Source: a virus. From it: DNA of 64,000 nt. The position numbers and the translations under genes were made by a program. A model generated the notes under the pieces. It saw only the letters and a list, made by a program, of their open reading frames with translations. It ran no database searches and was not told where the DNA came from. The DNA is taken from positions 37,674-101,673 of the IMG/VR virus record IMGVR_UViG_3300034284_002638; one strand, 5' to 3'. Numbering within the stretch: the first letter of the stretch is position 1; every line of letters begins with the position of its first letter. Of the stretch, positions 1 to 37,937 are shown one piece after another.

Positions 1-243
1 GCGTATTACAATTCCGACCCTTGGCCTCCGAAGAGCGAGGACTGGCTGAGGCGCATACTCCGAACGGGAGCCTGGTTGGCAAGGGCGGATAACGCTGAAA
101 TTCAACTTGAGAAAGATCCCAACCTTTGTTCGTGTGCGGATCCCGGAGACTTCATGTGCCGGACATTCGGCGTCGTGGAGGCGACCATGATCCTCGTCCC
201 GAAGGAAATCGCAATCAAAATCATGACATTGGGGCTGCCGTGA
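1..243 (+). CDS. Partial small protein, member 1 of the 'LGLP' paralog family (5' end outside window)
   Basis: Frame 1 is open from base 1 to TGA at 241-243 and ends ...MILVPKEIAIKIMTLGLP; absent from the ORF track; the stop overlaps the next GTG start. Confidence 0.8.
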   Translation, partial: AYYNSDPWPPKSEDWLRRILRTGAWLARADNAEIQLEKDPNLCSCADPGDFMCRTFGVVEATMILVPKEIAIKIMTLGLP

Positions 244-530
244 ACAGAGAATCAATCTCCAAACTGGAGCACATGTTTCGTGATAGTTTCTTTAGGCTTT
301 ACGACATGTATTTCAGACATGAGCCCGTCATCAAACACGATTGTGTCATGCTGAAGTGGACCGAATTCTTGAAGGGTCATGGATGCTATTTTCTTTTAAA
401 GGGCCGTCTTGTTGAGCCAGTGAATCATCCGAAAGGCTTCGTGCTCGTGTCCGACCCCATCAGGTGCAGAACAATAGCGGCCCCGACAGAATTCGCCCTA
501 AAGGCTCTGTATTTTGGCGAAATCCCATGA
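240..530 (+). CDS. 'LGLP' paralog family member 2
   Basis: GTGA overlap start at 240; KWTEFLKGHG core; ends IAAPTEFALKALYFGEIP. Confidence 0.75.
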   Translation: MNRESISKLEHMFRDSFFRLYDMYFRHEPVIKHDCVMLKWTEFLKGHGCYFLLKGRLVEPVNHPKGFVLVSDPIRCRTIAAPTEFALKALYFGEIP

Positions 531-847
531 GCATGGATACTTTTTTAGACCAACTCAACCTCAAGGTGTACCGGCTCTTCAGAGAGAAGGGCAAGGAACT
601 GAAGGGTGCGGGCTTGTTCTCCGAAGAGGGTTGGCTGGAGTACATACATTCGCTGGGGTGCGAAACCTCCGACAAGCAATCCTGCACCCGGTGTGGCAAG
701 ACCAGCATCATCCCTTATGACTCAAAGATGATTGTCTTCAGGGACGAACATTTTATTCGGGAAAAGGACGGATCAAAATACTACGACCGAATGATATTGG
801 TAGACACAGAAACGGCATTCAAGATCGTCGCACTGGGACTGCCATGA
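527..847 (+). CDS. 'LGLP' paralog family member 3 (contains a CxxC insert)
   Basis: ATGA overlap; GWLEYIHSLG core; ends MILVDTETAFKIVALGLP. Confidence 0.8.
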   Translation: MSMDTFLDQLNLKVYRLFREKGKELKGAGLFSEEGWLEYIHSLGCETSDKQSCTRCGKTSIIPYDSKMIVFRDEHFIREKDGSKYYDRMILVDTETAFKIVALGLP

Positions 848-1140
848 TAACCCGAGAAAACAAGGACAAGATCGCCCAACTCATTCAAGAGTCCACCTCG
901 CATCCGAAATTGAAGTTCTCGGACACGCTCCCGAAGAAGTCCGGGATGAGCTTCTTCCAAGAGGAACTCCTCAAACTCGGGATAAAGGAAGTAGAGAAGG
1001 ACAAGGGCAAATTCGACAGCAAGAAGCACATAATCATTGATCTGGGGTGGCCCGTCAGAAGCGGCAAAGTGCTGAAAGTTCCAACCCCGTTGGCCATAAA
1101 GATTCTGGCGTTGGGCTTTTTTCCTTGGAAGATACAATAG
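844..1140 (+). CDS. 'LGLP' paralog family member 4
   Basis: ATGA overlap; ends LKVPTPLAIKILALGFFPWKIQ. Confidence 0.8.
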   Translation: MITRENKDKIAQLIQESTSHPKLKFSDTLPKKSGMSFFQEELLKLGIKEVEKDKGKFDSKKHIIIDLGWPVRSGKVLKVPTPLAIKILALGFFPWKIQ

Positions 1141-1154
1141 TTTTGGAGACACTC

Positions 1155-1397
1155 ATGGACGACGCCGAGAAACAAGATTTTGAACTCAATCCCGTCTCCC
1201 TCAAGACGGCCGGAACTATGAAGGTGCGCTATGTAAACGGGGACAAACTCAAGCCAGTGCAACTTGAAGATGGCGGACTAACATCCGGACAGCGGGATGC
1301 GATAAGAATCGCCTTGGTACATTTGATCTTGGCCTCGGTGAAAGACCCCTCGCTAGAAAAACACATTGAAACACTCAGGGACATGATTGAAGCATGA
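1155..1397 (+). CDS. Hypothetical protein
   Basis: GGAG Shine-Dalgarno before ATG 1155; stop coupled to the next start. Confidence 0.6.
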   Translation: MDDAEKQDFELNPVSLKTAGTMKVRYVNGDKLKPVQLEDGGLTSGQRDAIRIALVHLILASVKDPSLEKHIETLRDMIEA

Positions 1398-1612
1398 GCA
1401 AATTGGGAAGAACCGCGTGGTGCCTGCGTTCGCCGAAGGGGAGGCTTGTCATCAAGACGCTCCATTCAAGCCGATCCGCATGTCTGGAGTTGAGCATCCC
1501 GTGCTTCAGATTCAAGCATAACTGGCTCCAGCCTTTTAACAGGACATGGAAGGAAGCCAGAAGTCTCGGGTGGAGCGTTGTCCTTGTGGATATCAAGGAA
1601 AAATCAAAATGA
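1394..1612 (+). CDS. Hypothetical basic protein
   Basis: ATGA-coupled at both ends. Confidence 0.55.
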   Translation: MSKLGRTAWCLRSPKGRLVIKTLHSSRSACLELSIPCFRFKHNWLQPFNRTWKEARSLGWSVVLVDIKEKSK

Positions 1613-1719
1613 ACATTTTTCAAAAACTCAATACTCCGATAACTGTTCCTAAATGGAAGTATGCTCTTTTGTGGCTTTTGGTGTTTATGACCGCCGTCAC
1701 TCACATGTTTAAGAAGTGA
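1609..1719 (+). CDS. 36-aa hydrophobic peptide (MNIFQKLNTPITVPKWKYALLWLLVFMTAVTHMFKK)
   Basis: ATGA overlap with the previous stop; single hydrophobic stretch; below the ORF-track cutoff. Confidence 0.45.
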   Translation: MNIFQKLNTPITVPKWKYALLWLLVFMTAVTHMFKK

Positions 1720-1763
1720 CCGTCGGCCAAAGGAAAAACACATGACTGAGTCAAAGGTGAATA

Positions 1764-2126
1764 ATGAGTGAACAAGAACCTGTGGCGTGGGCTCTTTATC
1801 CGCCTCTTGATGAAACGCCAAAAAAGCCAGTGATGGTATTTCAATGCCTAAAAGATGCGAATGATGAAGCGATTGAGTCCGGGTGTGATATCGTCCCTCT
1901 GTACCGCCAATCGCGGTGGATTCCTATAACGGAACAACTCCCCCCAGAGGGCGAGCGCGTTTTGTTTTACTTGGACGATCCGTTGACAGAGGTGAATCTT
2001 GGATGGTGGGAGGGCAAGCACACGCACGGCAAAGCGATTGCCATGGAGTACGGAGATGCCGACGGCGATTGGCTCCCGTGTAGCCACTGGATGTCGCTTC
2101 CGACCACAACGAGTGAACAAAAATGA
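1764..2126 (+). CDS. DUF551-like phage protein
   Basis: 'EPVAW', 'RWIPITEQLPPEGERVL' and 'SHWMSLP' are typical of DUF551 proteins. Confidence 0.75.
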   Translation: MSEQEPVAWALYPPLDETPKKPVMVFQCLKDANDEAIESGCDIVPLYRQSRWIPITEQLPPEGERVLFYLDDPLTEVNLGWWEGKHTHGKAIAMEYGDADGDWLPCSHWMSLPTTTSEQK

Positions 2127-2240
2127 GAAGAACAAACCAGATAGTCGGCATGGTCAACTTCCCGGTGGACTCGGATCAGTACGAGAGCACCAAGGTATGA
2201 TTAGGTTGCATACGCTGCCAACCCCAGTGACGAGATGTAG

Positions 2241-2651
2241 ATGAAACCGAGAAAGCAAAAAAAAATGAACGACGAACAGAAAACTTGGTTGAAAGTTCTC
2301 CTTTATTTAGTTGCAATCATATCATTGGTTTCTTTCTTGTGTTATTTGGACAATGAGTGGAGAGAGAAGATGGGCTCCGCCATCTTTTGCCCCAAGGGCG
2401 TCAAGCCGAACAATGTGGTGGAACGCTTCCACGAACACCAAGAAGTCAAGGTCTTGGAAAAGGGTACCGACGAGGTCGTAAGGACCTACGGAAGGGTGCG
2501 GCTCACTTTCCTCTCCAAGGATTCGTTCATGATACAGGACGACAACACAGGGAACCCCATCCTGCTTCTCGTGCAACTCAAACCCAACGAATATGTCACG
2601 GCGTTCACGAAAACTGAAAATTTTGAAGCCAAGGCTTGGGGTTTAAAATGA
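2241..2651 (+). CDS. Hypothetical protein with N-terminal transmembrane helix
   Basis: WLKVLLYLVAIISLVSFLCYL hydrophobic segment. Confidence 0.6.
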   Translation: MKPRKQKKMNDEQKTWLKVLLYLVAIISLVSFLCYLDNEWREKMGSAIFCPKGVKPNNVVERFHEHQEVKVLEKGTDEVVRTYGRVRLTFLSKDSFMIQDDNTGNPILLLVQLKPNEYVTAFTKTENFEAKAWGLK

Positions 2652-3061
2652 ATGAGTCTTGTGCCGATCCCGACGCCCCGCTCGAGAGCTGCTTCGTGTG
2701 TGGAAAATCCATCCACACCTGCGAAAGGAAAGAGGCCGTAAACAACAGCTATCTCTGTCCCGTTCATGGCGACGGGTGGCAGAGGGGCGATGGGGCTTGG
2801 ATCTGTAGCGAGGAGTGCGACCAGAAGTATGAAGCCGACAAGCCCCGCCACTCCAGCTTAAAGTTCTTCCACCCCTTCAACTTCGTCTTCGTCAAGAGGC
2901 CGAAGACGGACGATCCCAACTGGCACCCCAGTGACGACCTTCACCAATATGGATTCAGCCTTGACCTGACTACCGAACTTTATTTCTACACCTACGACTG
3001 GGGCCGGGGTTTTAACTTCAGGGTATTGGGATTCGGATTCGAGGTGTGCTTCAACCCATGA
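2648..3061 (+). CDS. Hypothetical Cys-rich (possible zinc-binding) protein
   Basis: CFVCG, CPVHG and CSEEC motifs; ATGA-coupled. Confidence 0.6.
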   Translation: MNESCADPDAPLESCFVCGKSIHTCERKEAVNNSYLCPVHGDGWQRGDGAWICSEECDQKYEADKPRHSSLKFFHPFNFVFVKRPKTDDPNWHPSDDLHQYGFSLDLTTELYFYTYDWGRGFNFRVLGFGFEVCFNP

Positions 3062-3267
3062 ATATCGAAAACGAGTTCCACACGGCGATCCTTCTGACGA
3101 TCGACCTGCACCGCCTGGTCACCGCCGGGCAAGGCGAGTCGGAGGAAGCCGACATCGTCCGCGAAACGCTGGGCAGTCTGCTGCTGACATTAGAGAAGGA
3201 CGACAGCGACCTTTGCGCTAAGGTATCGGCGAGGCTAGACTGGTACGAGAGATGGTATAGACAATGA
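3058..3267 (+). CDS. Hypothetical protein
   Basis: ATGA-coupled ORF. Confidence 0.55.
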   Translation: MNIENEFHTAILLTIDLHRLVTAGQGESEEADIVRETLGSLLLTLEKDDSDLCAKVSARLDWYERWYRQ

Positions 3268-3339
3268 AAATAAAAAAGCTCACGGCGGACCTCAGCCGAA
3301 GTGCAACCCGTACACAGCATTCGATGAAAAGGTGGATGT

Positions 3340-3594
3340 ATGACTAAAACTTGGGATTTCACCCTCGTGCTGAAGGGGGTGTCGGACTTGACCGACGATC
3401 TGGCCGACGCCCTTTTTGAGGCGGGATGCGACGACGCGACCCATAGCATGGTGGGCGGCAAGCCTCTTCTTGATTTCTCCAGGGAGGCGGAATCGCTCGA
3501 GGAAGCCGTCTTGACCGCCTTGGAAGACATCCGGCGGGCCGGCGAGATGCTGGGTGTCCCTTTGGATGTGGAACGCATTGGAGATGAACTGTGA
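3340..3594 (+). CDS. Conserved small protein (LADALFEAGCDDAT family; possibly HicB-like fold)
   Basis: FTLVL...LADALFEAGCDDAT...LDFSREAESLEEAVLTALEDIRRAG resembles a family I recall from Planctomycetes and other bacteria. Confidence 0.6.
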   Translation: MTKTWDFTLVLKGVSDLTDDLADALFEAGCDDATHSMVGGKPLLDFSREAESLEEAVLTALEDIRRAGEMLGVPLDVERIGDEL

Positions 3595-3833
3595 AACTCT
3601 CCGACGACAACATCAAAAAGCTTGAAGTTCTTCTTCGCAACGCACTTGCGATTAGATCAATGGGTCCTGAGGCTCTGCCTGCGAGTAGCGGCATTTTTTT
3701 GGCAGACATGATGTACGATTTCAGCGAATTCCCGAAGGGTTTCGTGCCGGTGAATCTCGGGATGGAGTATTACGCCTTGATTCCCAATGAACTAGCCATG
3801 AGGGCGTTGACCCTCGGCCACCTTGAATTTTAA
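3591..3833 (+). CDS. 'LGLP' paralog family member 5
   Basis: GTGA-coupled; N-terminal DNIKKLEVLL; ends ALIPNELAMRALTLGHLEF. Confidence 0.75.
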   Translation: MKLSDDNIKKLEVLLRNALAIRSMGPEALPASSGIFLADMMYDFSEFPKGFVPVNLGMEYYALIPNELAMRALTLGHLEF

Positions 3834-3836
3834 ACC

Positions 3837-4223
3837 ATGAATTCCGATAAATTCTGGGCACGGGAGGCCCTCAACAAACTCACCGAAGTCCTCACTGGAG
3901 CCATCGGCCCGCCCTTCCCGGTTCAACAGAACCAGCCCTTGCCCCATCCTCCATTTTTGGAGAAGTGGAGGGAATTCTGTATAAAACACAAAATCAAGCC
4001 GGGAGCCCCCGACTTCTATGTCAAGGGCGCTCACTACACCGACAAGTCCGTTGCGGACTTCTATGATTTTGAAGAAGTGCCAATGTACTACGATCATAAA
4101 AACACGGTCGTTGTCCTCAACCCCTTCTTCGGCCAAAAGTCAGAGGAAGACTTTCTCAGATACAAATGGCTTGAAATAGACGCGGAACTGGCGGTGAGGT
4201 TCCTTGTGCTAGGTCTCCCATGA
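3837..4223 (+). CDS. 'LGLP' paralog family member 6
   Basis: KWREFCIKHK core; ends LEIDAELAVRFLVLGLP. Confidence 0.8.
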   Translation: MNSDKFWAREALNKLTEVLTGAIGPPFPVQQNQPLPHPPFLEKWREFCIKHKIKPGAPDFYVKGAHYTDKSVADFYDFEEVPMYYDHKNTVVVLNPFFGQKSEEDFLRYKWLEIDAELAVRFLVLGLP

Positions 4224-4615
4224 GCGAAAATAAAAGCATATCCAAGAGGGCTTTTGAACTCTTGTACGACGAGTTCAGCAAGATCACTCACATGTCTCAC
4301 TGGTCTTATGGCGATCATCGTCGCCCCACGGGCACGAACCGAATGCTATACAGATGGGACAGATACCTCAAGAAACTCGGTGGGGTTCGAAGGGAGACGC
4401 TGAAGGATTTCCTGATCGACTTCAAGCCGAAACTGAGGGATGACCAGTTCGTAGCCGTAGATCCGGCCACGAAGTTCTACAACAGGGGCGGATCTGACGG
4501 CAGGGTCAGGATGCTCGTCATCGACAAGGACTTCGCGCTCAAGATGCTTACGATTGGCCCCCCAGACATCAGGGAAATGAAGTACAGGGTTCCACGGGAC
4601 TGGGAGGCGGAATGA
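4220..4615 (+). CDS. 'LGLP' paralog family member 7
   Basis: RWDRYLKKLG core; LVIDKDFALKMLTIGPP followed by a short extension. Confidence 0.8.
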   Translation: MSENKSISKRAFELLYDEFSKITHMSHWSYGDHRRPTGTNRMLYRWDRYLKKLGGVRRETLKDFLIDFKPKLRDDQFVAVDPATKFYNRGGSDGRVRMLVIDKDFALKMLTIGPPDIREMKYRVPRDWEAE

Positions 4616-5007
4616 GTTCCACGAACTGGTCCAAGAAGAAATTAAAAAAGGCTCCCCTTCCTTGGATTCGTGCTCCATGGGAACTCAAAGATCCGACCCA
4701 TCGGAAGATCATGCTCGTAATTAATCAATCCTTTGAAAGAATGTTCGGTCACAAGTTCACGCTCAGTTGCTCCGAGAGGAGATTGTGGGGAGAGTTCTTG
4801 AACGAGAGAGCCATACATTGGAAGATAAAACTCCCCCGACAGCCCGCGGATTGCGACTCCTGGAATGGTTGGAATTTTGTGGTGTGCCCAAAGGACTCGG
4901 TTCTTTTGGCCCAACCAAAGAACCTAGAGGGCTATGTGGAGGTCGGCAAATTCTTTATTCCTGAGGATCTAGCCACAAGAATGCTGGTTCTGGGGGAGCT
5001 GCTATAA
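4612..5007 (+). CDS. 'LGLP' paralog family member 8
   Basis: LWGEFLNERA core; ends FFIPEDLATRMLVLGELL. Confidence 0.8.
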   Translation: MSSTNWSKKKLKKAPLPWIRAPWELKDPTHRKIMLVINQSFERMFGHKFTLSCSERRLWGEFLNERAIHWKIKLPRQPADCDSWNGWNFVVCPKDSVLLAQPKNLEGYVEVGKFFIPEDLATRMLVLGELL

Positions 5008-5008
5008 A

Positions 5009-5323
5009 ATGTATTCAAGCAACGGAACAAGTCTCATCACCGAGATCGAGGCCAAACTAGGAGATCTGATGAGGGATGGTTTTCCCCACGACGGAACATA
5101 TTCAGAATATCACAAGGCCAAAGATAAATTTCTCGCATGTATAGAGGCCAACGGAATAAGGCTTATGTCCTTCTGGGATTATACGGAAACGAAGAAGAAA
5201 AAAACGACCGGGATCAACCTTGCCCCAAGCCCGTTCTCAACTCCAGGCAGGGAAGACCATTATGTCGTATTCGACGACGAACTAGCGACGAGGGTGTTGG
5301 CGTTGGGCTTTCTTCCTAGATAA
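5009..5323 (+). CDS. 'LGLP' paralog family member 9
   Basis: Ends VVFDDELATRVLALGFLPR. Confidence 0.8.
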   Translation: MYSSNGTSLITEIEAKLGDLMRDGFPHDGTYSEYHKAKDKFLACIEANGIRLMSFWDYTETKKKKTTGINLAPSPFSTPGREDHYVVFDDELATRVLALGFLPR

Positions 5324-5989
5324 TCATTCGTCTATTGCTTGGCGTCTGACCTCTTGCCCCAACTTGTTGATCCTCTGCTCGGTGTATACCTCAAACTTCC
5401 AGCCCCGCACCTTGCACGCCTCCTCTGCCGCACGCCACTTGTTCTTGTTCATCTCAAGGTCGGTCTGGTTGGACGGCTTGATCTCCCAAAGCTGCTTGGT
5501 GCCGTCCATGAAGTTCACGATGAGGTCGGGCGTGTACCTGTGGGCCTGCCCTTGGTGTATGTAATCTATCTGGAACGGTTCGGAGTAGAACGACTCAACA
5601 TCGTCATGCTGATCCAGTATCTTGTAGACCTTCTCCTCCAGGCCGCTCCTGTAGCCCAAGACCCTCCCCGTCTTCGTAGATTCGTACTTGCCCTGCTTGA
5701 ACTTGGGCTTCCTCGTCTTCTTTCCCTTCTGCGAGAAGTCGTGCCACAGTATGGCCCGGGCCTGCCCGGCATAGTTTCTGAAGTCAAAGTTGGGATGCTT
5801 GACCTTCATATGAAGTTTGACATCCCTAACAGGTGCCCCGCAGTGCTCCAGGGGGCATCTCACAAACTCCCTGCCCTCCTCGTGGCTTTCCAAGATGTGC
5901 GACTTGAACTCCGCATAATCCTCGAACTGGACCCCGCAACAAAAGCACACGTATTTCTTGCCGGAACCGTCTGCGAAGGGGAGAGTCAT
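5324..5989 (-). CDS. TnsA-like / T4 gp4-like head-completion nuclease with N-terminal C2H2-type zinc fingers
   Basis: YRSGLE...SEPFQIDY...YTPD...WEIKP PD-(D/E)xK motif; N-terminal CxxC...HxxxxH and CxxxxC...HxxxxH. Confidence 0.8.
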   Translation of the reverse strand: MTLPFADGSGKKYVCFCCGVQFEDYAEFKSHILESHEEGREFVRCPLEHCGAPVRDVKLHMKVKHPNFDFRNYAGQARAILWHDFSQKGKKTRKPKFKQGKYESTKTGRVLGYRSGLEEKVYKILDQHDDVESFYSEPFQIDYIHQGQAHRYTPDLIVNFMDGTKQLWEIKPSNQTDLEMNKNKWRAAEEACKVRGWKFEVYTEQRINKLGQEVRRQAIDE

Positions 5990-6168: not shown

Positions 6169-6561
6169 TCACTCCTCCCCATAAGTCTTGTCGCCATCCT
6201 CGTCATCGGACACGACAATCATTTTCTTGCCCTTCTTCTCTAAGTGCTTTTCTGCCTTTTCCTGGGTGACCACTTCTATTTCGTCAATGTCGCCGCTGTG
6301 GAATACGGACATGGACTTGTCTCCGTCTGTAGATTTTTCCAAGTCATAGGCGGAGAAGCTGGCCTCCTTTGCCCAATCCTCGTCCTCCTTGGACTCGGGA
6401 CTTTTCATGCGGGCGAAGGTTATGCGTCCCGTCTCCGTAGCCCCGTACAAGACACCGTCCTTCTTGAAAAAAAGACAAAGGTCATTCTCTGTGAACAGTC
6501 TGGAGGCGGTGTCCCATTTATCCATCAGTTCTCGAAAATTAGAAAATGCCGGACTGTCCAT
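6169..6561 (-). CDS. Hypothetical protein
   Basis: ORF in a co-directional run; N-terminal 'FSNFRELMDKW' resembles the dispersed leader motif. Confidence 0.7.
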   Translation of the reverse strand: MDSPAFSNFRELMDKWDTASRLFTENDLCLFFKKDGVLYGATETGRITFARMKSPESKEDEDWAKEASFSAYDLEKSTDGDKSMSVFHSGDIDEIEVVTQEKAEKHLEKKGKKMIVVSDDEDGDKTYGEE

Positions 6562-6637
6562 AATTCTTCCTCAATTCAAGATGAACCAACATCACTCATA
6601 GAAGGTTCTTCACCGCCGAGGATATATACACCTAAAC

Positions 6638-7045
6638 ATGAGCAAAAAAACATTTAGATCGTTCCTGGAGGAGGATCAGTCCTACCTTTCCTCGCTTGAG
6701 GATACGCTCGGAATAGACCCGAGAGACATGGAAATAGAGCCCCAGATAGGCAAATTCTTCTCCTTCAGCCAAGAAGCCTCCAAAAGGCTTGGCCTAACCA
6801 GCAATGTTGGCCCCTACGAGATTAAAAAATTTAAAAGAAACAGCGAAGGAAAAATAACCCATGCGGTCGTAGTGAAAATAAACGACCCCTTCATTAAGAG
6901 TTCAGAGTACAAGGACGAAGACGGAAATGTCGTCCGAGTGGACAAGGATAAAGAAAACCAGACTTTCCTCGTGGACATAAAGGATCTTGAGGGGTTGCTC
7001 AAGCAAGATCTGGAGCCCTCTCCGGGTCAAGGCGGAATAGCCTAA
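6638..7045 (+). CDS. Hypothetical protein with capsid-targeting-like N-terminus (MSKKTFRSFLEE)
   Basis: N-terminal motif; TATATA 9 nt upstream of the ATG. Confidence 0.7.
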   Translation: MSKKTFRSFLEEDQSYLSSLEDTLGIDPRDMEIEPQIGKFFSFSQEASKRLGLTSNVGPYEIKKFKRNSEGKITHAVVVKINDPFIKSSEYKDEDGNVVRVDKDKENQTFLVDIKDLEGLLKQDLEPSPGQGGIA

Positions 7046-7629
7046 TTGGAGAATTCCAAGAAAGGCAAAATAAGATCGTCAATCTTGGAATAAAGTTGAT
7101 CCAGGCTGCCGTCGTTCACCAGGAAAAAGTCCACCAGCCCGAAGTCCCCAGTTGAGCAATTGACCCGACCCTCAATGCCCTCCTTCAAGAAATATTCAAC
7201 AAACTCTCTTATCTGAGATTCTGAATCGTTCGGGTCATTGTTGATAAAGCCGGGTCTATAAATAAGTATATTTTTCCCACCCCTCTCTCTTACCGCAAGA
7301 AGTTCGTTCTTGTATCTGACATCGCTTATTATCAAAGATTTATGATCTATACGAAGAAGCATCTCGATCCATATTTCGTCTTTTATGCTCCTAAATCCGT
7401 CCCCTATAAACTGAAGGGCTTGTCGGACAGGTATCTTAAATCCCGGAGGAGGTTCCGAGACGGTCTTCCACTTCTCTATAAAATCAAGATCTACGCCAAA
7501 TGTCTCGCAAAAAATGCGTTTGACATTTGAGGCAAACGAGCCCCTACCCCAACCCAGCCTTTTGGCCAGATAGTCCGCCGTGACGTCCTTGCCCTGACGG
7601 AGCTGTCCCGCACAAGCCAACAATCTCAT
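7042..7629 (-). CDS. Deoxynucleoside monophosphate kinase (T4 gp1-like)
   Basis: P-loop GQLRQGKD, SFA, RQALQFIGDGFR, IISDVRYKNE, NDGSL. Confidence 0.85.
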   Translation of the reverse strand: MRLLACAGQLRQGKDVTADYLAKRLGWGRGSFASNVKRIFCETFGVDLDFIEKWKTVSEPPPGFKIPVRQALQFIGDGFRSIKDEIWIEMLLRIDHKSLIISDVRYKNELLAVRERGGKNILIYRPGFINNDPNDSESQIREFVEYFLKEGIEGRVNCSTGDFGLVDFFLVNDGSLDQLYSKIDDLILPFLEFSN

Positions 7630-7701
7630 TTTTAAACCTTTTCCTCACTGAGATTATACTCTTTTATTCAACAAGTTCAATACATACATTTGGAAAAAAA
7701 T

Positions 7702-7950
7702 ATGAAAGAGCCCAGATGCGGCAACTGTCTTCTTTTTGACAAAACAAAAGAAACCTGCGGGGTGGCAATCCTTATCGAGGGAAATAGATACCACATGCCA
7801 GTAGATCCCAAGGACAAGTGCCACATGGACGAATTGGGCATACCGGTCAACCAAGTAAGATGGTGGGTGGAGGATCCTAGCACTGGGGAAAAGACCGATA
7901 AAGATGGAGTTGTAAAAATTGAATATCCAGAAGACTTTTTTGGGAGCTAA
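7702..7950 (+). CDS. Hypothetical Cys-containing protein
   Basis: CGNC...C...C; start of a tightly packed + strand run. Confidence 0.65.
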   Translation: MKEPRCGNCLLFDKTKETCGVAILIEGNRYHMPVDPKDKCHMDELGIPVNQVRWWVEDPSTGEKTDKDGVVKIEYPEDFFGS

Positions 7951-8229
7951 ATGGGAGACTGCTGCGGACAACAGTTCAAACGAGGCCGGCCTGGGTTGGC
8001 GGCCGATCCTAGTCAACAGTGCTTTGTGGACTGCTGCGACAAGTCTTGTCCGCCCGAAAACTGCTGCGATAGCATAACCATACACTTCGAGTGCGGACCC
8101 AAGGAGCCTCCAGAATGCACTTGCGACTGCATTTTTAATGGATACAGCTTCGGCGGCGTGACATTCAAGAAACGAATGCTTCCCACACCAACCCCAATTA
8201 CAACCCCTGGAGGGGGGTCGTCGCCATGA
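7951..8229 (+). CDS. Very Cys-rich small protein
   Basis: Multiple CC and CxCxC motifs; abuts both neighbours. Confidence 0.65.
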
Positions 8230-9488
8230 TTGAAAATGAATGGCTAAAAAATAAAGCCGAATTCTCGGCCCTTAATTGCAACATGACCGTATCTGTCACA
8301 ATCCCGGCTGGGTATGCGGCAGATGTTTCAATAGAAGACGACATCAGTCCAGAAATATATGTAAATGTATCTGGGGTGGTCGGAACAGCAAGTTATACAG
8401 TTTCTAATATTGACCCCGATGCACTTCAACTTTGGGTCAATATTAGAAACTTTAGGTGCCTAGGCGGATCTTCGTTTGGCCTATCTTATGACCAGAGATT
8501 TTACAGAGATGTAGATTGCGGTGGAACAGTTTCTGTAACATATAACTCCGGTCCTGACATAGGCGGAGTACCAAGCATACCTTCTTGCTCAACGCCTACG
8601 CCTACACCTAGTAGAAGCCCTACACCTACCGCTACAGTCCCGCCCCCTACCCCTAGCAGAAGCCCAACGCCAAGCGTCACGGCAACCAGAACACCCACGC
8701 CAACGCCGAGCCGAAGCCCAAGCCCAACGCTCAGCGGCACAGTCACGCTCACGCCAACGCCGAGCCGAAGCCCAAGCCCAACGCTCAGCGGCACAGTCAC
8801 GCTCACGCCAACGCCGAGCCGAAGCCCAAGCCCAACGCTCAGCGGCACAGTCACGCCCACGCCAACGCCGAGCCGAAGCCCAAGCCCAACGCTCAGCGGC
8901 ACAGTCACGCTCACGCCAACGCCGAGCCGAAGCCCAAGCCCAACGCTCAGCGGCACAGTCACGCTCACGCCAACGCCGAGCCGAAGCCCAAGCCCAACGC
9001 TCAGCGGCACAGTTACCCCTTCACCCACCCCTTCGCCGTCCCCGTCGCCGACCCCTTCACCCACCCCTTCGCCGTCCCCGTCGCCGTCCCCGTCGCCGTC
9101 CCCTTCACCGTCCCCGACATGCGCCCCATGCGAATCGGTCCAAGTGACATTAACAACAAGCGGGTGTTGTCTTTACATGGCATCAAACACAATAGAAGCC
9201 GTGGGAAGCGGAGTTGTTTCAGCAACAATAAACCAGCCAGAAAACTGTCAAGTAACTTTGGCTCTTAACGGAATTGAAACGGATTCAATCGCGGTAGAGG
9301 ACGGAGATGAAATAACTGTGGAGATACACACAGAATCAAAATGCAAATGCTGCGAAACAAAAAGAGACTGCTCGCCCAATAGTTCGGGATTTATTGCCCA
9401 AGCAAGGAGCGGCAAAATATCCATAAACAAAAATGAACTAGCCAGAAGAATAAGGTTTATAGCAGAAAGATCAATATCAAGAAATTGA
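8226..9488 (+). CDS. Mucin-like Pro/Thr/Ser-rich protein flanked by Cys-containing domains (likely virion surface)
   Basis: Central PTS-rich linker of about 180 aa between two beta-rich domains. Confidence 0.75.
8697..9020 (+). repeat. Six tandem 54-bp coding repeats ([17 protein letters not shown][L/P]), followed by (SP)n
   Basis: Unit acgccaacgccgagccgaagcccaagcccaacgctcagcggcacagtcacgctc repeated with few changes. Confidence 0.9.
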
Positions 9489-12476: not shown

Positions 12477-12926
12477 TCAATAAAGATTCAGCTGCTCGGG
12501 GTTCATATACATGTATTCAAAACCTTCAAAAACCATAGGGGTAGTCTTTTCCTTTATAGGAGACAGTATCGGGCGGCCACGAGGATCCAAACAAACACTC
12601 CAGCAGTAAACCTTCCTGTCCTCTTGATAAAATTCTATAAGAGAGAGAAAATGTCCGCCCAGAACCTTTTTGGCTAGTTTCGCAACAATATGGAACGGTA
12701 AAAAAGGAGCATATTTGTTGTATACCTGAAAAGTCTCCAGGTAATGATCATTATATAAAGCGCGATTAAAATGAAATACTATGGTGTATCCATCAACCTC
12801 CGCCTCGCACTTTTTGAGCGGAGCTATATGATACTCCATCTCAACAGGACCCATCGGAAAATTGTATGGAACTAAGTCCGAAGCAAGATTTTTCATAATC
12901 TCTATCTTTTCATCGAACTTGGCCAT
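12477..12926 (-). CDS. Hypothetical protein
   Basis: Clean ORF with GAGGA Shine-Dalgarno. Confidence 0.7.
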   Translation of the reverse strand: MAKFDEKIEIMKNLASDLVPYNFPMGPVEMEYHIAPLKKCEAEVDGYTIVFHFNRALYNDHYLETFQVYNKYAPFLPFHIVAKLAKKVLGGHFLSLIEFYQEDRKVYCWSVCLDPRGRPILSPIKEKTTPMVFEGFEYMYMNPEQLNLY

Positions 12927-12993
12927 CTATTTTTCCTCAAAATTATTTATCCCTTTTAGGATTAGAAAAATCCAAAATGCATCAAAAAACGCA

Positions 12994-13022
12994 TTGACCA
13001 ATTATACATTGGCTGCTATATT
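12994..13022 (+). promoter_or_regulatory. Sigma70-type promoter TTGACC-17-TATATT
   Basis: Directly upstream of AGGAG and ATG 13043. Confidence 0.6.
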
Positions 13023-13042
13023 AGATGCAATAGGAGAAAAAC

Positions 13043-13276
13043 ATGTCCACAAAATGCTTGCTTCTGGAGACCAAGGACAAAAAAAGAATTTTTACCTTGA
13101 TAGGAAACAAAAAGCACCTCAAGGAATATTGCAAGGCCTTTGGAGCAAAAATGTTTGTAGTCAAGGCAGAAATAGAAAAATCAAAGATAATGGATCTTCA
13201 ACAACTGGTTCCGGCCTTGTGCGACAAAAACTACAAAAGTTTCAAGGTGGAATTTGAGGTAGTTAAGTCCGAATAG
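13043..13276 (+). CDS. Hypothetical basic protein
   Basis: AGGAG Shine-Dalgarno and its own promoter. Confidence 0.65.
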   Translation: MSTKCLLLETKDKKRIFTLIGNKKHLKEYCKAFGAKMFVVKAEIEKSKIMDLQQLVPALCDKNYKSFKVEFEVVKSE

Positions 13277-13286
13277 TCTGGGTGCT

Positions 13287-14474
13287 TCAATCCGACTCGC
13301 CCAAAAGATTGCCAACATCCTGGTGCGTGTCGATCTGCTCTACGTCTTCACTGTTCGTAAGAGCGATAGCTTCCGACCACTCCTTCAAATATTCCTTGAC
13401 CTCATCCGCATTCTCAGCATCTATGAGAGCCGGATACTTTATCAGAATCTCAGGGTCAAACGGGGCGGACTTGGCCTGCTGGAAGGTGGCCTCCTCGTCG
13501 CCGCCATTCCAAGGCGAAAGTATTCTGTATTTTCCAGCCCCCTTGCCGGGTTCAACCCTTTTGGACATCAAAATGGCATCCATGAGGCCGCCAAGAGGGT
13601 TGATTCCAGAGTCATAAAAAAGAGGCACATTTTCAATCTTGATCCCGGGCGTGAAATGTCTGTTTTTCTTGTTCACTATGGTCATGTTGGTTCCAAGCGA
13701 CAACTTCGTACTCTTGTCCTGGAAGGCTTTGGGAGATCCGGTGCGGAACCTCAGGGAGGCATAAAACTTGAGAGCCTCGCCGCCGCCAGAAGTGGTCTCA
13801 TCATTTCCATAAATTACGCCAATCTTCTTGCGAACCTGGTTGATGACATAAAGGGTCGCATCCTTGTCGTTCAAGAACGGATTGAGACTCCTCAGAATCT
13901 TGTTGGCAAATTTCGCCCGCTCGCCGGGACGCTCATTGCCCACCGCGTCGCGCTCGGCCTTGGTAGCATTCTCGGGAAGGTCAACCTCGCTCCACTCCCT
14001 ATCGGTGGGATTGACGCCTATGGAGTCCCAAACGATCCCGATTGGCTTCTTGGGAAACTTTGCCCGAATGGCATTCACCACTGTGATTATCTTCTTTTCA
14101 ACCTGCTGGAGGGTTACGGGATCAAAGACCAAAAGCTTATCAGGATCAACATGGCCACACCGCTCGGCAAAATCAGAGCCGCTCGAGCGTTCGCAGTCCA
14201 AAAGGACTGCAATTCCGCCCTGCTTCTGAATGGCTCCGAGAAAGCAGTAGCCCAAGAGGGACTTGCCAGATGCCTCAGGACCAAATGCCTCAATTATTCT
14301 TCCTCCGGGAAACCCTCCCTTAATGAATTTGCCGCTGCAGGCGTAATTGATGGCCAAGTTGCCGGTGTTTACATAATAAGGCACCTGCCCCGCGTTACGC
14401 AGCAGTTCGCCACCGGTGGACTCCAGTATTTCGTCCAAAACGGAATCATCGTTCTTTGTTTTTGACTTGGCCAT
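13287..14474 (-). CDS. uvsX: RecA/UvsX recombinase
   Basis: GRIIEAFGPEASGKS, DCERS, WDSIG, INQVR, TSGGGEALKFYASLR. Confidence 0.93.
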   Translation of the reverse strand: MAKSKTKNDDSVLDEILESTGGELLRNAGQVPYYVNTGNLAINYACSGKFIKGGFPGGRIIEAFGPEASGKSLLGYCFLGAIQKQGGIAVLLDCERSSGSDFAERCGHVDPDKLLVFDPVTLQQVEKKIITVVNAIRAKFPKKPIGIVWDSIGVNPTDREWSEVDLPENATKAERDAVGNERPGERAKFANKILRSLNPFLNDKDATLYVINQVRKKIGVIYGNDETTSGGGEALKFYASLRFRTGSPKAFQDKSTKLSLGTNMTIVNKKNRHFTPGIKIENVPLFYDSGINPLGGLMDAILMSKRVEPGKGAGKYRILSPWNGGDEEATFQQAKSAPFDPEILIKYPALIDAENADEVKEYLKEWSEAIALTNSEDVEQIDTHQDVGNLLGESD

Positions 14475-18120: not shown

Positions 18121-18767
18121 GCAGCACCACTCAAAAGGCAGTGCTCCAACCCAATCAACTGCAAAAACACTCTCATGTCCTTCTCCGAAGACTCATCTCT
18201 AGATGAGTAATAATTCCATATCAAAAGATCAACCTTCGCTACAGACATTCCGGATCTGTCTACAAGACCCAAAAATTCGCCTTCAAGAAACAAATAGGAT
18301 TTTTTTCCAGGCGTGGTCTTAGGAGCATCGTAGCCGATCATCCTCATGAATTTTAAAAGATGCACATCAAGCCCAGCAAACCTCGCTCCTCTCCTGCTGT
18401 GGAGCAGAAAACACCTTGCCGTTTTGGGGCCAATGCCTCTCACGGACTCAAGATCATAAACGGAACAAGTTTTAAGGTCTAATCCCTTTTGGGCAAGATC
18501 CATCATGGATTTGCCTTTGTTGTTGTAGCATCCGATACCATGAACCCTAAGTTCTTCTGAAAGATCAGCCCCAAACATCCGTATAATTTCAAAAGGCTCG
18601 TCCGCTACAAACTTGCCCTTGCCGCGCAACATAAGACGGTTCAAATTGGCTGCTGCGGTGGAGGCCTTCTTCCCGGCGGCACATATCCAAAACAACAACA
18701 TAAGTTGCAACTCGTAATCGTTGCAGTCAAATTTAGTTATATTGCTCGGGTCTATGAGGTAGTTCAT
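18117..18767 (-). CDS. HhH DNA glycosylase/AP lyase (Ogg2/endonuclease III-like)
   Basis: LESVRGIGPKTARCFL (HhH with catalytic Lys) and LDVH; likely start MNYLIDP. Confidence 0.75.
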   Translation of the reverse strand: MNYLIDPSNITKFDCNDYELQLMLLFWICAAGKKASTAAANLNRLMLRGKGKFVADEPFEIIRMFGADLSEELRVHGIGCYNNKGKSMMDLAQKGLDLKTCSVYDLESVRGIGPKTARCFLLHSRRGARFAGLDVHLLKFMRMIGYDAPKTTPGKKSYLFLEGEFLGLVDRSGMSVAKVDLLIWNYYSSRDESSEKDMRVFLQLIGLEHCLLSGAA

Positions 18768-21114: not shown

Positions 21115-22149
21115 TCAGTTTTCGAAAATTCTGTTGTGCGTGTTGTTCACTCTAATGAATTTGCAGCATTTGCTCAAGTCCTTGAGGCTCTCGGTGCCAA
21201 CATATGTGCAAGTGCTTCTTAATCCACCGAGAATTTCCTGGATGGTATGTTCTACAGGCCCCTTGTACGGAACTTTTGCGGAACGACCCTCGGAGGCTCT
21301 ATAGTTCGCAACTCCTCCGTTGAACTTCTCCATAGCCTCCTTGCTGCTCATTCCGTAAAAATTCATGAAGGACTTCTTGCCGGACTGATCGTACTCCCAG
21401 TCGGCCTCGCACTCGTCGTGGCCCGCGAGCATACCACCGAGCATCACAAAGTCGGCTCCGGCGCCGAAGGCCTTGGCTATATCGCCAGGGCATGTGCAGC
21501 CTCCGTCGGCGACGATGTGTCCACGCAATCCATGAGCGGCGTCTGCGCATTCAAGGCACGCACTAAGTTGGGGAAACCCCACGCCAGTTACGATTCTCGT
21601 GGTACAAGCCGAGCCTGGGCCTATTCCTATCTTGACAATATCCACTCCTCCCGAAAGCAACAGTTCTTGAACCATCTCCGGAGTGCAGACATTGCCGGCC
21701 ATCAGAACAGAATCTTTGAACTTGTCCCTCAACTGCTTGCATTTTTCCACGAAAAACTTCGTATAACCGTTCGCCACATCAAGACAGATGTGCATGGGCG
21801 CGGAGCCGAATGCCTTTTGAAAGGCGGACAACTTTTCAAAATCCTCGTCCTTGATCCCTAGGGTGTAAAAAGCTTGATCTTTTCGGAAAAATTCAACAAG
21901 TTGCTGAATTGAGTAGTGCTTATGCAAACAAGTGGCCAAGCCAAATTTAGAAAAGACCTCACTCATGGCAAAGGTGCCGACCGTGCTCATGTTGGCCGCC
22001 ACTATAGGAACGCCTTCCCAGTGAGAGCCGGAATTCAAAAAAGTGAATTTTCGGGTCAGTTCAACATTTCGGCGGCTTGGAGATTCAGACCTCTTCGGAC
22101 AGATGAGAACATCCGAATAGTCCAGCTTCACTTCGTTTTCAATCCTCAT
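21115..22149 (-). CDS. guaC: GMP reductase
   Basis: [51 protein letters not shown]. Confidence 0.95.
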
Positions 22150-22168
22150 GTCAACACCTCATTGCCCA

Positions 22169-22197
22169 AATTTAACACACATCATTTTTTTTGTCAA
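22169..22197 (-). promoter_or_regulatory. Sigma70-type promoter TTGACA-17-TAAATT for the guaC-helicase run
   Basis: Hexamers upstream of GAGGT and the ATG of guaC. Confidence 0.6.
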
Positions 22198-22215
22198 TTG
22201 AACTTGTTTAACAAT

Positions 22216-22494
22216 ATGGGAAGAAAAAAGAAAATTATAGACAAGGTCATAAAGAAAAAGGTAGACAAAAGATGCAAGTTCTGCGGAGAAGAGGAATACT
22301 GCTTGCTTGATGTTCACAGGATAGTGCCCGGGTCATCGGGCGGAAAATACACCGAGACAAATACAGTCACCTCATGCAGCAACTGTCATCGAAAAATACA
22401 TGATGGAAAAATCAAAATTGACAGAAAGTACCCTTCAACAAAAGGATGGGTTCTGCATTATTTTGACGAAAAAGGAATAGAACACTGGGACTAG
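22216..22494 (+). CDS. Small HNH endonuclease
   Basis: CKFCG...LDVHRIVP...GG...NTVTSCSNCHRKIH. Confidence 0.85.
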   Translation: MGRKKKIIDKVIKKKVDKRCKFCGEEEYCLLDVHRIVPGSSGGKYTETNTVTSCSNCHRKIHDGKIKIDRKYPSTKGWVLHYFDEKGIEHWD

Positions 22495-23048: not shown

Positions 23049-24367
23049 GCTGGAACTCCTTCTTTTATATTTTGCATATCATTCAAGCTGTGTCCGAACT
23101 TACAAGTTGTTTTTAGTCTGAGTCCTGGGAACATAGGATCTTCCTCCTCCAAGGCGGCAGATCCTATCTCTTGGATAAATCCGACTTCGTTCTTGTTGCA
23201 AAGGACACAATAACCGTCATGTACATGAAAGCAGATGCCTGCCTTGCCCGAAAGGGCTTCGTGCAAACGCACCAGTTTTCTCAAACAAATCATGCTCGCT
23301 GGCGACTGGATACAAAAATTTTTAATCTTGTACAGTTCGTGGTCTTCAAATTTTCTTCTCCGACCAAAAACATCAGTCGCCGTGTTGTTGCCATCGGTGG
23401 TCTGGGAGTTAACCCAGTCAAAGGCAACGGGAAAGGTACTATTTAGCTTATATATGAGTTTGGAAGCAATTTCTTCCTTTATGCCCAACTTCTTGGAGAG
23501 AGACCTAGCTCCTTGTCCGAAAACAACGGGAAGAAATATATTCTTACACAATGTCCGGTGAGAATCGGTTGGATGATCTTGCTGCGTAATCCTACTCCAT
23601 ATCTCCCTATACAAGTCCTTGCCGGAGTCTAATATCCCTGCAAGGGCAGCATCTCTGCTGAGCCACTGGAGAACATTTACCTCCATGTTCTTATAGTCAA
23701 AGTATACGAAAACTTCATCATAGTCTTTTGGCCTCAGATTGGCTTTCTCATTGGCTCCTATCGAATGAGGGTTATAGGAGGAGAGGCCGTTTTTTACCGC
23801 CTTGAGACGCCCGTTTATCTGGCCTTCTATAACATATGTCGGATATACGCACCTTCTTTTCGCATTGTCTATTAAACAATGCGTTTCAATGTCAGGCATG
23901 ACCTTGGAAAACAAGGGACGATAGACCGACCGATAAAAATCGCAAAATCGAGTCCAGCCAGATTCGTTCATGGCCGCACGAAGAATAGCGGCGGCGGAGT
24001 TAAATGTTTTAGGCTTGTCTAGCGGAAAACCGAAATAAGAACAAATGATTGATATGTCGTAGATTCGGCCGACCATCTCTAGGTCTATTTCCGTCTTTCC
24101 CTTGAGATAGGTGAACAAATCCTTGATGCCCCAGCACATAACCACGCTATTCTCGTCAATAAAATGATAAAGAGAAGAGGCGAGGTAGGAAGAACTTTCA
24201 ACATCGGCCAAAGAAAGGGACGCCTTCTTCCCGCCATAATGCAAAACAAGTTCGACACACTCCTCGGAACTCGTCCAGTCCGGACACTCCTTGGAAAGGT
24301 AAAGGTAGAGATCCTTCCCCTTCAGCTGCGGCAGAACTTCTGCGAATTCGGTCATGGTTAAAATCAT
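23045..24367 (-). CDS. Compact family A DNA polymerase-like protein
   Basis: GRL; motif A FDYKNME; motif B RTLCKNIFLPVVFG; FGRRR; NFCIQSPAS; motif C VHDG. Confidence 0.8.
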   Translation of the reverse strand: MILTMTEFAEVLPQLKGKDLYLYLSKECPDWTSSEECVELVLHYGGKKASLSLADVESSSYLASSLYHFIDENSVVMCWGIKDLFTYLKGKTEIDLEMVGRIYDISIICSYFGFPLDKPKTFNSAAAILRAAMNESGWTRFCDFYRSVYRPLFSKVMPDIETHCLIDNAKRRCVYPTYVIEGQINGRLKAVKNGLSSYNPHSIGANEKANLRPKDYDEVFVYFDYKNMEVNVLQWLSRDAALAGILDSGKDLYREIWSRITQQDHPTDSHRTLCKNIFLPVVFGQGARSLSKKLGIKEEIASKLIYKLNSTFPVAFDWVNSQTTDGNNTATDVFGRRRKFEDHELYKIKNFCIQSPASMICLRKLVRLHEALSGKAGICFHVHDGYCVLCNKNEVGFIQEIGSAALEEEDPMFPGLRLKTTCKFGHSLNDMQNIKEGVPA

Positions 24368-25111: not shown

Positions 25112-25792
25112 ATGAGAGAGCTAGAGCCCATCCTCAAGTACAAGATGGACGAGGTCGAGTCCAAGGCCTACAAAATAGCGATAATGTGGCAAGAAGAATG
25201 CGAGAGAGAGCTGCCCAAAGAACAGACCGTCAAGCTCAAGAAAAACTCAGACCCCAGAAAATCTACGCTTTTTAAATACTGCTACAAACTTGCCAAGGAA
25301 ATGAAGGGGATATTGCCCGATAACGATTTCAGGTTTTATATAAGGGCTCAAATACAGATCCTCAAAAGCATTAGAGAAGGCGAAATTCACGCATTGGTGG
25401 AGCCTCATTGTCTTGTAGGCGAAAAGGCATGGAAAAGATGGAAGGTTTGGAAAAGCAAGTACCAGAGAAAATTGAGAGAATCCTTGACCTCCGATGAAAT
25501 GGAAATATCAGCAAAGGACTCAAAGGTCATCGGAGACCTGGAGAATTCATTCAATCTCCTTTCTAGAAGGGGATGTCTTGTTTTTGAAGAATTAGAAAAG
25601 AATCAAGAAAACATAGGCAGATGGGTCAGCAATGGAGAATTATCTTGCTATTACATGGTTATTTCTCCTTGGATGAGAAAAATATTTGGAGATTTAGATG
25701 AATTCAATTTTGACAAGACATACTACAGATCCGCAATAAATCCTCATATTGATCAATTTTTTAGGACCAAGTTCAGCCATGAGTATCTTTGA
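25112..25792 (+). CDS. Hypothetical protein
   Basis: Clean 226-aa ORF. Confidence 0.75.
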   Translation: MRELEPILKYKMDEVESKAYKIAIMWQEECERELPKEQTVKLKKNSDPRKSTLFKYCYKLAKEMKGILPDNDFRFYIRAQIQILKSIREGEIHALVEPHCLVGEKAWKRWKVWKSKYQRKLRESLTSDEMEISAKDSKVIGDLENSFNLLSRRGCLVFEELEKNQENIGRWVSNGELSCYYMVISPWMRKIFGDLDEFNFDKTYYRSAINPHIDQFFRTKFSHEYL

Positions 25793-26189
25793 TAAAGATG
25801 ATGAAAATAAAGATGATATAACTAGGTTTCAAATACTTAATAAGAGAGGCTCTTACTTTGTCATGTACAAAGGGTGGGCCTACAATCTCTCTCCCTCATC
25901 ATATACTCAGATGAGTCTTTCCCCCGCGATCCTTGGTGTGGATTCTTTTTTGAAAGAAGGATCAAAAATAAAAGGAATTGACGGTAACTTAACGCTGGCG
26001 AGTTGCCCAGACTGGTTTTTGGGCTGTGATGTTAGGATAGAATTTCAAGAAAGGCTTCTTGACGGATGGGTTTATTCGCTCCATGCCGAGTCACTTAATG
26101 TAAAAAACTTTCACAGAGTTTGGATATGTCCATACTTGAAGTTCTTTTTTGAAAATCCTCCACCTAAGCTTTTCCTATCCTTGGAATGA
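25779..26189 (+). CDS. Hypothetical protein
   Basis: Start MSIFDK overlaps the upstream gene end. Confidence 0.7.
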   Translation: MSIFDKDDENKDDITRFQILNKRGSYFVMYKGWAYNLSPSSYTQMSLSPAILGVDSFLKEGSKIKGIDGNLTLASCPDWFLGCDVRIEFQERLLDGWVYSLHAESLNVKNFHRVWICPYLKFFFENPPPKLFLSLE

Positions 26190-26543
26190 TTTGGGATGCA
26201 CAAGATAAGCCTCGTCGGCCACGGTGAGATATATCGACTCCTCATCTATCTTCAAACATAGCGAAGAAAGGAATTCAACAAAGTGCTTGAATTTTTCATC
26301 GCCATGAAATGCAACTTCGTATCGCTCATGTTTGTCTCGGACTATTTCCCCAGCATTGACCCAATAGCCTTTTATCTCACTTGATTCATGCGTGTAGGCG
26401 CAATACTCCGACACAAAAAAATCATGTATTTTATCCCTGACCTCATCGGTCAGTTTCTCTACTGGAACATAAAAAACGGCAACCTTGCCGACATATTTAA
26501 CGAATTGACTGTTGTCAATCATCCACTTTTTGAAAACTTCCAA
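26175..26543 (-). CDS. Hypothetical protein (N-terminal VFKKWMIDN)
   Basis: TTG-start ORF with an N-terminus like the dispersed leader motif. Confidence 0.65.
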   Translation of the reverse strand: MEVFKKWMIDNSQFVKYVGKVAVFYVPVEKLTDEVRDKIHDFFVSEYCAYTHESSEIKGYWVNAGEIVRDKHERYEVAFHGDEKFKHFVEFLSSLCLKIDEESIYLTVADEAYLVHPKSFQG

Positions 26544-26547
26544 TTAA

Positions 26548-28774: not shown

Positions 28775-28803
28775 GCCAGATATATAGGTTCGAGGATGGC
28801 ATT

Positions 28804-31351: not shown

Positions 31352-31380
31352 AATTGTTGACTATAGCACAAAATCCCCAA

Positions 31381-37889: not shown

Positions 37890-37937
37890 TTTAATACGCT
37901 TACATACCCTCGCATCAAACAAAAAGCAGGAGTTTTT

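Follow-up and report, generated by a model that had tools for sequence, protein, structure and literature searches.

A long array of small, diverged paralogs with translational coupling on a contig from a large tailed phage

In this work, we have followed up by computational analysis an observation made at the left end of a 64-kb stretch of viral DNA (hereafter the window; bases 37674–101673, that is the 3΄ 64 kb, of the 101,673-bp IMG/VR viral contig IMGVR_UViG_3300034284_002638), where nine small open reading frames (ORFs) were reported to end in the same C-terminal motif, here called the tail. Our results show that these are the last nine genes of a family of 32, all on the + strand and spread over about 24 kb of the contig (19.4–43.0 kb), and that roughly a quarter of this 100-kb fragment is devoted to one protein family. 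All nine ORFs of the original prediction, with their C-terminal motifs, lie where it had placed them. Its count of 'at least nine' copies was right for the window and understated the total, which a converged profile sets at 32, and the array does extend upstream of base 1, as it had suspected, by about 18 kb more. The family appears to be undescribed and is apparently restricted to viruses.

The array, its predicted fold and the coupling joint

A loose regular expression for the tail matched 27 ORFs of the contig, every one of them + strand and located at 19.3–43.0 kb, and a profile hidden Markov model built from them added five members by matches to the whole profile (E 1e-8 to 1e-13), the first non-member appearing at E 0.011. 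A second round converged on the 32 members plus one 42-codon remnant that consists of the tail only, and among the 1,324 six-frame ORFs of the contig the profile matched nothing on the - strand or off frame. The concern attached to the original prediction, that such a profile might score shuffled sequences equally well, did not materialize: leave-one-out profiles detected 32 of 32 members (E 3e-4 to 6e-20) and never recognized shuffled member sequences. When the tail was removed, 16 of the 32 were still recognized at E < 0.01, a count that excludes m14 and m30, whose internal tail the cut left in place; in the window only m20, m21 and m25 (240–530, 527–847 and 4220–4615) fell below this threshold.

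The 32 genes fall into 11 blocks, and the coupled runs among them comprise 11, 5, 5, 2, 2 and 2 genes. The stop codon lies within an [A/G/T]TGA overlap in 28 of the 32 genes, and at 16 junctions the 4-nucleotide (nt) overlap leads directly into the next family member. Sibling paralogs in one genome are mostly 25–40% identical, and the isoelectric point (pI) of the members spans 4.8 to 9.8, with 13 acidic proteins among them. The claim that the array holds no DNA-level repeat was nearly right, the departure from it being window positions 355–530 (m20), which are 76% identical in DNA to contig 28442–28617 (paralog m08). The members within the window are as follows, with E values from the leave-one-out profiles and lengths in amino acids (aa):

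1–243, + strand: m19, cut at its 5΄ end by the window edge (full gene at contig 37632–37916, 94 aa); E 3e-8; 4-nt start/stop overlap with each neighbour
240–530, + strand: m20, 96 aa; GTG start overlapping the m19 stop; E 7.5e-16, and 6e-9 without the tail; 56% identical to paralog m08
527–847, + strand: m21, 106 aa; modelled with AlphaFold2; outside homologs at 89% and 67% identity; orthologue in the related contig G002 (see below) at 44%
844–1140, + strand: m22, 98 aa; four extra residues after the tail; TAG stop; E 2.6e-8; last gene of a 5-gene coupled run
3591–3833, + strand: m23, 80 aa, the shortest and weakest member; E 2.7e-4, driven by the tail; degenerate central W helix
3837–4223, + strand: m24, 128 aa, with insertions; E 1.8e-5
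4220–4615, + strand: m25, 131 aa; 18-residue extension past the tail; E 2.4e-9
4612–5007, + strand: m26, 131 aa (98 aa if a later Met is the start); E 1.5e-6; G002 orthologue at 35%
5009–5323, + strand: m27, 104 aa, the final gene of the array; E 3.5e-7

The AlphaFold2 model of m21, made from a 32-sequence alignment, has a mean predicted local distance difference test (pLDDT) score of 84.8 and a predicted template modelling (pTM) score of 0.74, and describes an α-α-β5-α protein with helices at residues 3–27 and 33–42, five strands and a closing helix at 94–103. The motif falls in the last β-strand (88–93) and the C-terminal helix (94–103), and the last 16 residues have a pLDDT of about 95. The most divergent member of the window, m24, was modelled with a pLDDT of 71.5 and a pTM of 0.63, and the order of its core elements is that of m21, with insertions added. 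According to these models, the conserved 'tag' is the final strand plus the amphipathic C-terminal helix of a compact α-α-β(4–5)-α domain, and not the free hydrophobic docking tail that had been proposed.

Column statistics, computed over 207 unique sequences, identified four conserved regions: an amphipathic N-terminal helix (K9, L10, h13, h14, K17); a helix W38..Y41-L42..G46, with W38 present in 89%; a strand ending in D70-P71; and the tail itself, I79-x-V81-P82-x-E84-h-A86-x-K88-I-L-V-L-G93-x-L95-P96. The loop columns carry near-zero information, and the loops and the sheet region vary freely, in agreement with the constant scaffold and variable loops of the original prediction. The charged positions are kept to a striking degree (K9 is K/R in 93%, K17 is kept in 83%, E84 is E/D in 94% and K88 is K/R in 98%), which suggests that a functional site, beyond the shared core, is common to the members; these retained residues may also mark a common docking site for all members. 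No Cys, His or Ser column is conserved among the 207 sequences (the commonest Cys, at position 47, reaches 38%), which speaks against an enzymatic role. Each member is a stand-alone protein of 80–130 aa that the domain fills entirely, with no signal sequence, and a crude scan of the members found no hydrophobic runs. About 15% extend past P96.

Some members carry additions to this plan. In the subfamily formed by m09, m10, m14, m28 and their relatives (contig 28614–31838; 60.7–61.9 kb of G002), the tail is prolonged by a conserved 'PDSPS-I-E-x-M-R-E' segment. Members m14 and m30 (12924–13835 and 4860–5417 in the numbering of L007, where L007:566–631 corresponds to contig 18566–18631) have long C-terminal extensions that open, as judged by eye, with a hydrophobic, membrane-helix-like stretch; that of m30 is Cys-rich, and neither extension has a Pfam match.

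Is the tail conserved as protein or as DNA? Over 55 anchored genes, the mean entropy of its third codon positions is 1.66 bits (1.9 at the invariant Gly) versus 0.80 at second positions. Near-random third positions beside fixed first and second ones mean that the tail is conserved as protein, and not as a DNA repeat. The very end of the gene behaves differently. The terminal Pro is encoded by CCA (16), CCG (13) or CCT (6) and in 0 of 35 cases by CCC, which accounts for 141 of 341 internal Pro codons, more than any other (p 4e-8). Of 59 family genes, 54 stop at TGA, versus 39 of 72 genes elsewhere on the contig (p 2e-6). Placed before TGA, CCA, CCG and CCT all form a start codon (ATG, GTG or TTG) that overlaps the stop. 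The terminal Pro codon and the TGA are therefore selected at the nucleotide level to form the start of the next gene, a clean case of one site serving both the C-terminus of a protein and the start of the gene that follows.

Sister array, distribution and genomic setting

A second array is present in a related phage, represented by a 73-kb IMG/VR contig (G002) whose RecA, DnaB, PolA and TnsA-like nuclease are 92%, 78%, 63% and 81% identical to those of our contig. It carries 27 members on one strand in its last 16 kb. There are 18 reciprocal-best orthologue pairs, at 41–84% identity, so that most paralogs have a single counterpart there, 23 of our 32 members are nearer to a G002 copy than to any sibling, and gene order is partly collinear. 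The ratio of nonsynonymous to synonymous substitution rates (dN/dS), where dS could be estimated, is 0.12–0.46 for family pairs and 0.05–0.15 for core genes, values that are rough because dS is near saturation. Since orthologues are closer than siblings and selection is purifying, the paralogs must be old, individually maintained, real genes and not the product of a recent amplification; each paralog lineage predates the split of the two phages. Two further features of this comparison may be mentioned. The entire array (contig 19–43 kb versus G002 55–73 kb) is inverted relative to the conserved flanking genes, and the dS of array orthologues (0.6–1.9) appears lower than that of the core genes, which is mostly saturated, and may hint at a more recent exchange of array segments.

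How widespread is the family? A profile search of 1.84 billion cluster representatives (clusters at 50% identity) gave 700 matches at E≤1e-3, 47 of them at E≤1e-10, nearly all to proteins of 80–130 aa in which the domain ends at the C-terminus. Among the 151 proteins made up of the listed matches and the homolog P0002, which a 327-kb contig encodes, 125 are less than 50% identical to any member on the contig and 112 end at most 4 residues from the tail. The names in the ten clusters that were looked up all read 'hypothetical protein'. One match, P0123 (745 aa, with five matching stretches), which resembled merged phage genes, is a false positive: it is an LMBR1-like protein of fish, rich in repeats. 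The 700 matches are thus not free of noise.

The exact tail pattern was found on 15 metagenome contigs, 14 of which have true members, nearly always at least two in the same orientation (multi-copy on 13 of the 14); many of these contigs, which are short, carry just two or three. A shorter tail pattern found three IMG/VR contigs, two of them by chance matches. The exact pattern, the one pattern scanned there, had no match in about 185,000 prokaryote species genomes. Neither a tblastn search of m12 against 50,697 GenBank phages nor a related-locus search with a single member protein returned anything. Tandem two-domain fusions are rare, at 2 of 150 representatives (P0012, with two full domains, and P0053, with a partial and a complete one), and a search with an alignment of outside homologs (A2) found no longer fused forms, which is weak evidence.

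The original prediction did not recognize the family, and the databases do not either. In Pfam the nine window members matched only noise at E≤1 and 35 outside members matched nothing; PHROGs v4 held no family match for the nine window members or for 64 members, and NCBIfam none for the 32. PADLOC gave one match among the 32 (E 0.0097), judged to be noise. Foldseek returned no match in PDB and nothing at E<0.1 in BFVD, the ESM Atlas gave no feature match, and all structural template modelling (TM) scores were below 0.45. In profile searches of PDB chains, alignment A1 gave as its best match the HicB antitoxin (6hpb, 6u0i), aligned weakly to the strand-plus-helix tail at E 0.078. We rejected this relation: the match is non-significant, it was not reproduced with the independent outside alignment A2 (whose best match was a spurious coiled-coil, E 0.011), there is no Pfam HicB match, and the secondary-structure elements of HicB come in a different order from those of the array family.

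The contig that harbours the array is about 18% complete according to CheckV. It encodes, among others, a DEAD-box helicase, RecA, DnaB, a family-A DNA polymerase, a ribonucleotide reductase and a 908-aa tail sheath, and the sole GenBank phage with DNA similarity to the window is the 595-kb uncultured huge phage LR756511.1, in which no family member was found and whose match is trivial. From this gene content, and from that trivial match, it follows that the contig is a fragment of a large, uncultivated tailed phage. The array forms a + strand island flanked by - strand operons, with ThyX, an HldE-like gene, PrkA, YeaH/DUF444, an intein-containing SpoVR and ClpP upstream and the TnsA-like nuclease followed by replication genes downstream; it lies about 50 kb from the tail sheath gene, amid replication and accessory genes, and clpP is about 13 kb upstream. 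Two σ70-like promoter matches (10/12 each, one per strand) stand back-to-back at contig 18566–18631 and coincide exactly with the left strand switch, at the opening of the array. Promoter-like sites are enriched over the upstream 20 kb (27 found versus 15.6 ± 4.4 expected). Neither tRNAs nor Rfam families were found inside the array.

Between the blocks lie an IS605-type TnpB, a DUF551 protein, a gene with a regulator/excisionase-like PHROG match, and ORFans. Five non-family array genes form diverged duplicate pairs (61–85% identity), implying that segmental duplication shaped the entire region. The non-family genes of the window that separate or bound the blocks are these:

1764–2126, + strand: DUF551 protein (Pfam PF04448, E 2.7e-6)
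2636–3061, + strand: Cys-rich gene, 141 aa; 68% identical copy at contig 23363–23833; weak treble-clef hint only
3340–3594, + strand: 84-aa gene, regulator/excisionase-like (phrog_2620, E 6e-13); duplicate at contig 23812–24084 (61%); stop overlapping the m23 start
5324–5989, - strand: TnsA-like/endonuclease-I-like nuclease (PF08722, E 2.5e-19; PF05367, E 4e-9), the convergent right boundary of the array; stop abutting that of m27 with zero intergenic bases; 81% identical orthologue in G002

The second and third of these genes make up a two-gene cassette, Cys-rich plus regulator-like, that is duplicated at contig 23363–24084 with 61–68% protein identity. The nuclease has a Cys/His-rich N-terminus. 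The TnpB (an OrfB/Cas12f-like TNB domain) is inserted mid-array on the + strand at contig 25305–26585 (L007:7305–8582). Upstream of the window, the SpoVR homolog (contig 6555–9389, - strand), part of a prkA-yeaH(DUF444)-spoVR-clpP gene string, is split by an intein with a LAGLIDADG homing-endonuclease domain.

Possible roles of the array proteins

What could so many diverged copies do for a phage? Our favoured explanation, which we hold tentatively, is that the members are co-expressed, soluble proteins of the cytoplasm that bind others without enzymatic activity, one face being constant and the remaining surfaces diversified. σ70-like promoters, located within the array as well as at its left end, would drive transcription of the genes together, and the paralogs would be co-translated as a cocktail, probably early in infection. 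The constant face, with its conserved Lys and Glu on both terminal helices, would contact something common, the variable surfaces would give each paralog its own target, and the array as a whole may then constitute a host-takeover or counter-defence repertoire, a role already raised in the original prediction and plausible from the genomic context. The wide span of pI is counted as support for diversified surfaces. Several observations weigh against this explanation. A fast arms race would not be expected to keep the paralogs one-to-one at dN/dS values far below 1. In five window members (1–243, 3591–3833, 3837–4223, 4612–5007 and 5009–5323) sequence homology lies in the tail alone. No non-family gene was found to be consistently linked to the arrays on the other contigs, which leaves them without a common partner gene. 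Finally, the early timing would derive solely from consensus promoter matches, and in the window part of the array promoter-like sites are not enriched (5 found versus 3.9 expected).

It is possible, if doubtful, that the members are instead subunits of a hetero-oligomeric assembly formed through the conserved helices, with coupling serving stoichiometry. Coupled runs of up to 11 genes with a joint under selection, the natural tandem fusions P0012 and P0053, and the one-to-one maintenance of paralogs under purifying selection would all fit such an assembly. However, the fusions are rare, related phages have neither the same number of copies (32 versus 27) nor the same order (only partly collinear), and many metagenome contigs have two or three copies only, although these contigs are short.

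An unlikely elaboration of the binder explanation is a modular adaptor system, in which the constant face (the conserved Lys/Glu and the hydrophobic C-terminal helix) would dock the paralogs on one hub while the variable sheet and loops recruit different host proteins; the phage ClpP-containing protease and the host RNA polymerase are candidate hubs. If true, bacterial viruses would have their own counterpart of the ankyrin-PRANC substrate adaptors of poxviruses, with a fold not seen before. We find it equally unlikely that the members are PAS/PDC-like small-ligand binders or 'sponges', each sequestering a different small molecule or peptide, such as host immune signals. Periplasmic PDC/PAS sensors (ParS 8ju7, RisS 3lr5, WalK 4ywz, CusS 5ku5) are the top-ranked structures for both models and share with them the overall layout, in which a long N-terminal helix precedes an antiparallel sheet; in these sensors the domain is extracytoplasmic and stands between transmembrane helices, an arrangement that the members do not have.

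Could the members be specific transcription factors or nucleic-acid binders, as proposed for the zinc-ribbon expansion of about 35 copies in Bacillus phage G? In favour are that case itself, a huge phage in which small putative regulators have multiplied to a large number (PMC7824862), the Lys/Arg conserved on two helices and the regulator-like small gene coupled to one block. We judge it improbable nonetheless: with a pI range of 4.8–9.8 and 13 acidic members, no conserved Cys, and no helix-turn-helix, ribbon-helix-helix, zinc-ribbon or other DNA-binding signature in Pfam, the family does not look like one of regulators.

A virion- or tail-fibre-associated function, in which the members would be adhesin-like tips or fibre chaperones forming a receptor-binding repertoire, is quite improbable. 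The case for it comes from m03 (contig 21981–22424, L007:3981–4421), whose approximately 50 N-terminal residues carry a tail-fibre/hyaluronidase N-terminal motif (13 PHROG matches, best E 8.6e-8) fused to the family domain, and from the metagenome contig L036, where a fibre-like gene with this motif stands just upstream of two members. However, no second such fusion was found among all the family sequences collected, the array is remote from the tail sheath gene, its neighbours being genes for replication and accessory functions, and the members are small and lack signal sequences.

The last alternative, that the tail is a mere nucleotide element (a coupling joint, or a recombination or cassette site) shared by otherwise unrelated ORFans, could appeal to the selected Pro-TGA joint and to the five window members with a profile signal confined to the tail, but it is largely refuted and very improbable given the near-random third codon positions, the 16 members recognized without the tail, the conserved W..YL..G and D-P columns far from it, and the packing of the tail into the domain by AlphaFold2.

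Comparison with known systems

Huge phages hold hundreds of genes that cannot be named, and here a family that is widespread in metagenomes, with no detectable fold relative, fills about a quarter of a 100-kb fragment. The family is tractable, since its members are small and confidently modelled and orthologues are available for each paralog, and identifying the partner of the constant face might uncover a new strategy of host takeover or counter-defence, or else a new type of small binding scaffold.

The closest parallel among phages is the lineage-specific expansion of a zinc-ribbon protein in Bacillus phage G, with about 35 copies, read by its authors as regulators or binders (Iyer et al. 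2021, PMC7824862). Both are cases of a very large phage with some 30–35 paralogs of one small protein of unknown role. The folds, however, are unrelated: the array family has neither a zinc ribbon nor a conserved Cys, and none of its columns corresponds to the CxxC...CxxC pattern of the phage G type. It also differs in its long, translationally coupled tandem runs and in old paralogs that are individually retained between phages.

Eukaryotic viruses offer a second comparison. The MGF110, MGF360 and MGF505 multigene families (MGF) of African swine fever virus and the ankyrin-PRANC proteins of poxviruses are likewise tandem, diverged paralogs in accessory regions, and in the ankyrin-PRANC proteins the C-terminal element is constant and binds a single hub, the targets being chosen by the variable parts, which is the logic of the docking proposal in the original prediction. 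What defines a viral multigene family, namely many diverged, clustered paralogs that recur in related viruses, is what we observe, with 32 genes in 24 kb here and 27 in 16 kb on G002. No sequence or fold relationship with these families is known, however, and the constant element is in our case integral to the fold. Huge phages and giant eukaryotic viruses are thus already known to carry large expansions of small proteins, and the array described here is of a known kind; what is new is this family, in which the fold is apparently without a match, the coupled runs are very long and the C-terminus serves two uses.

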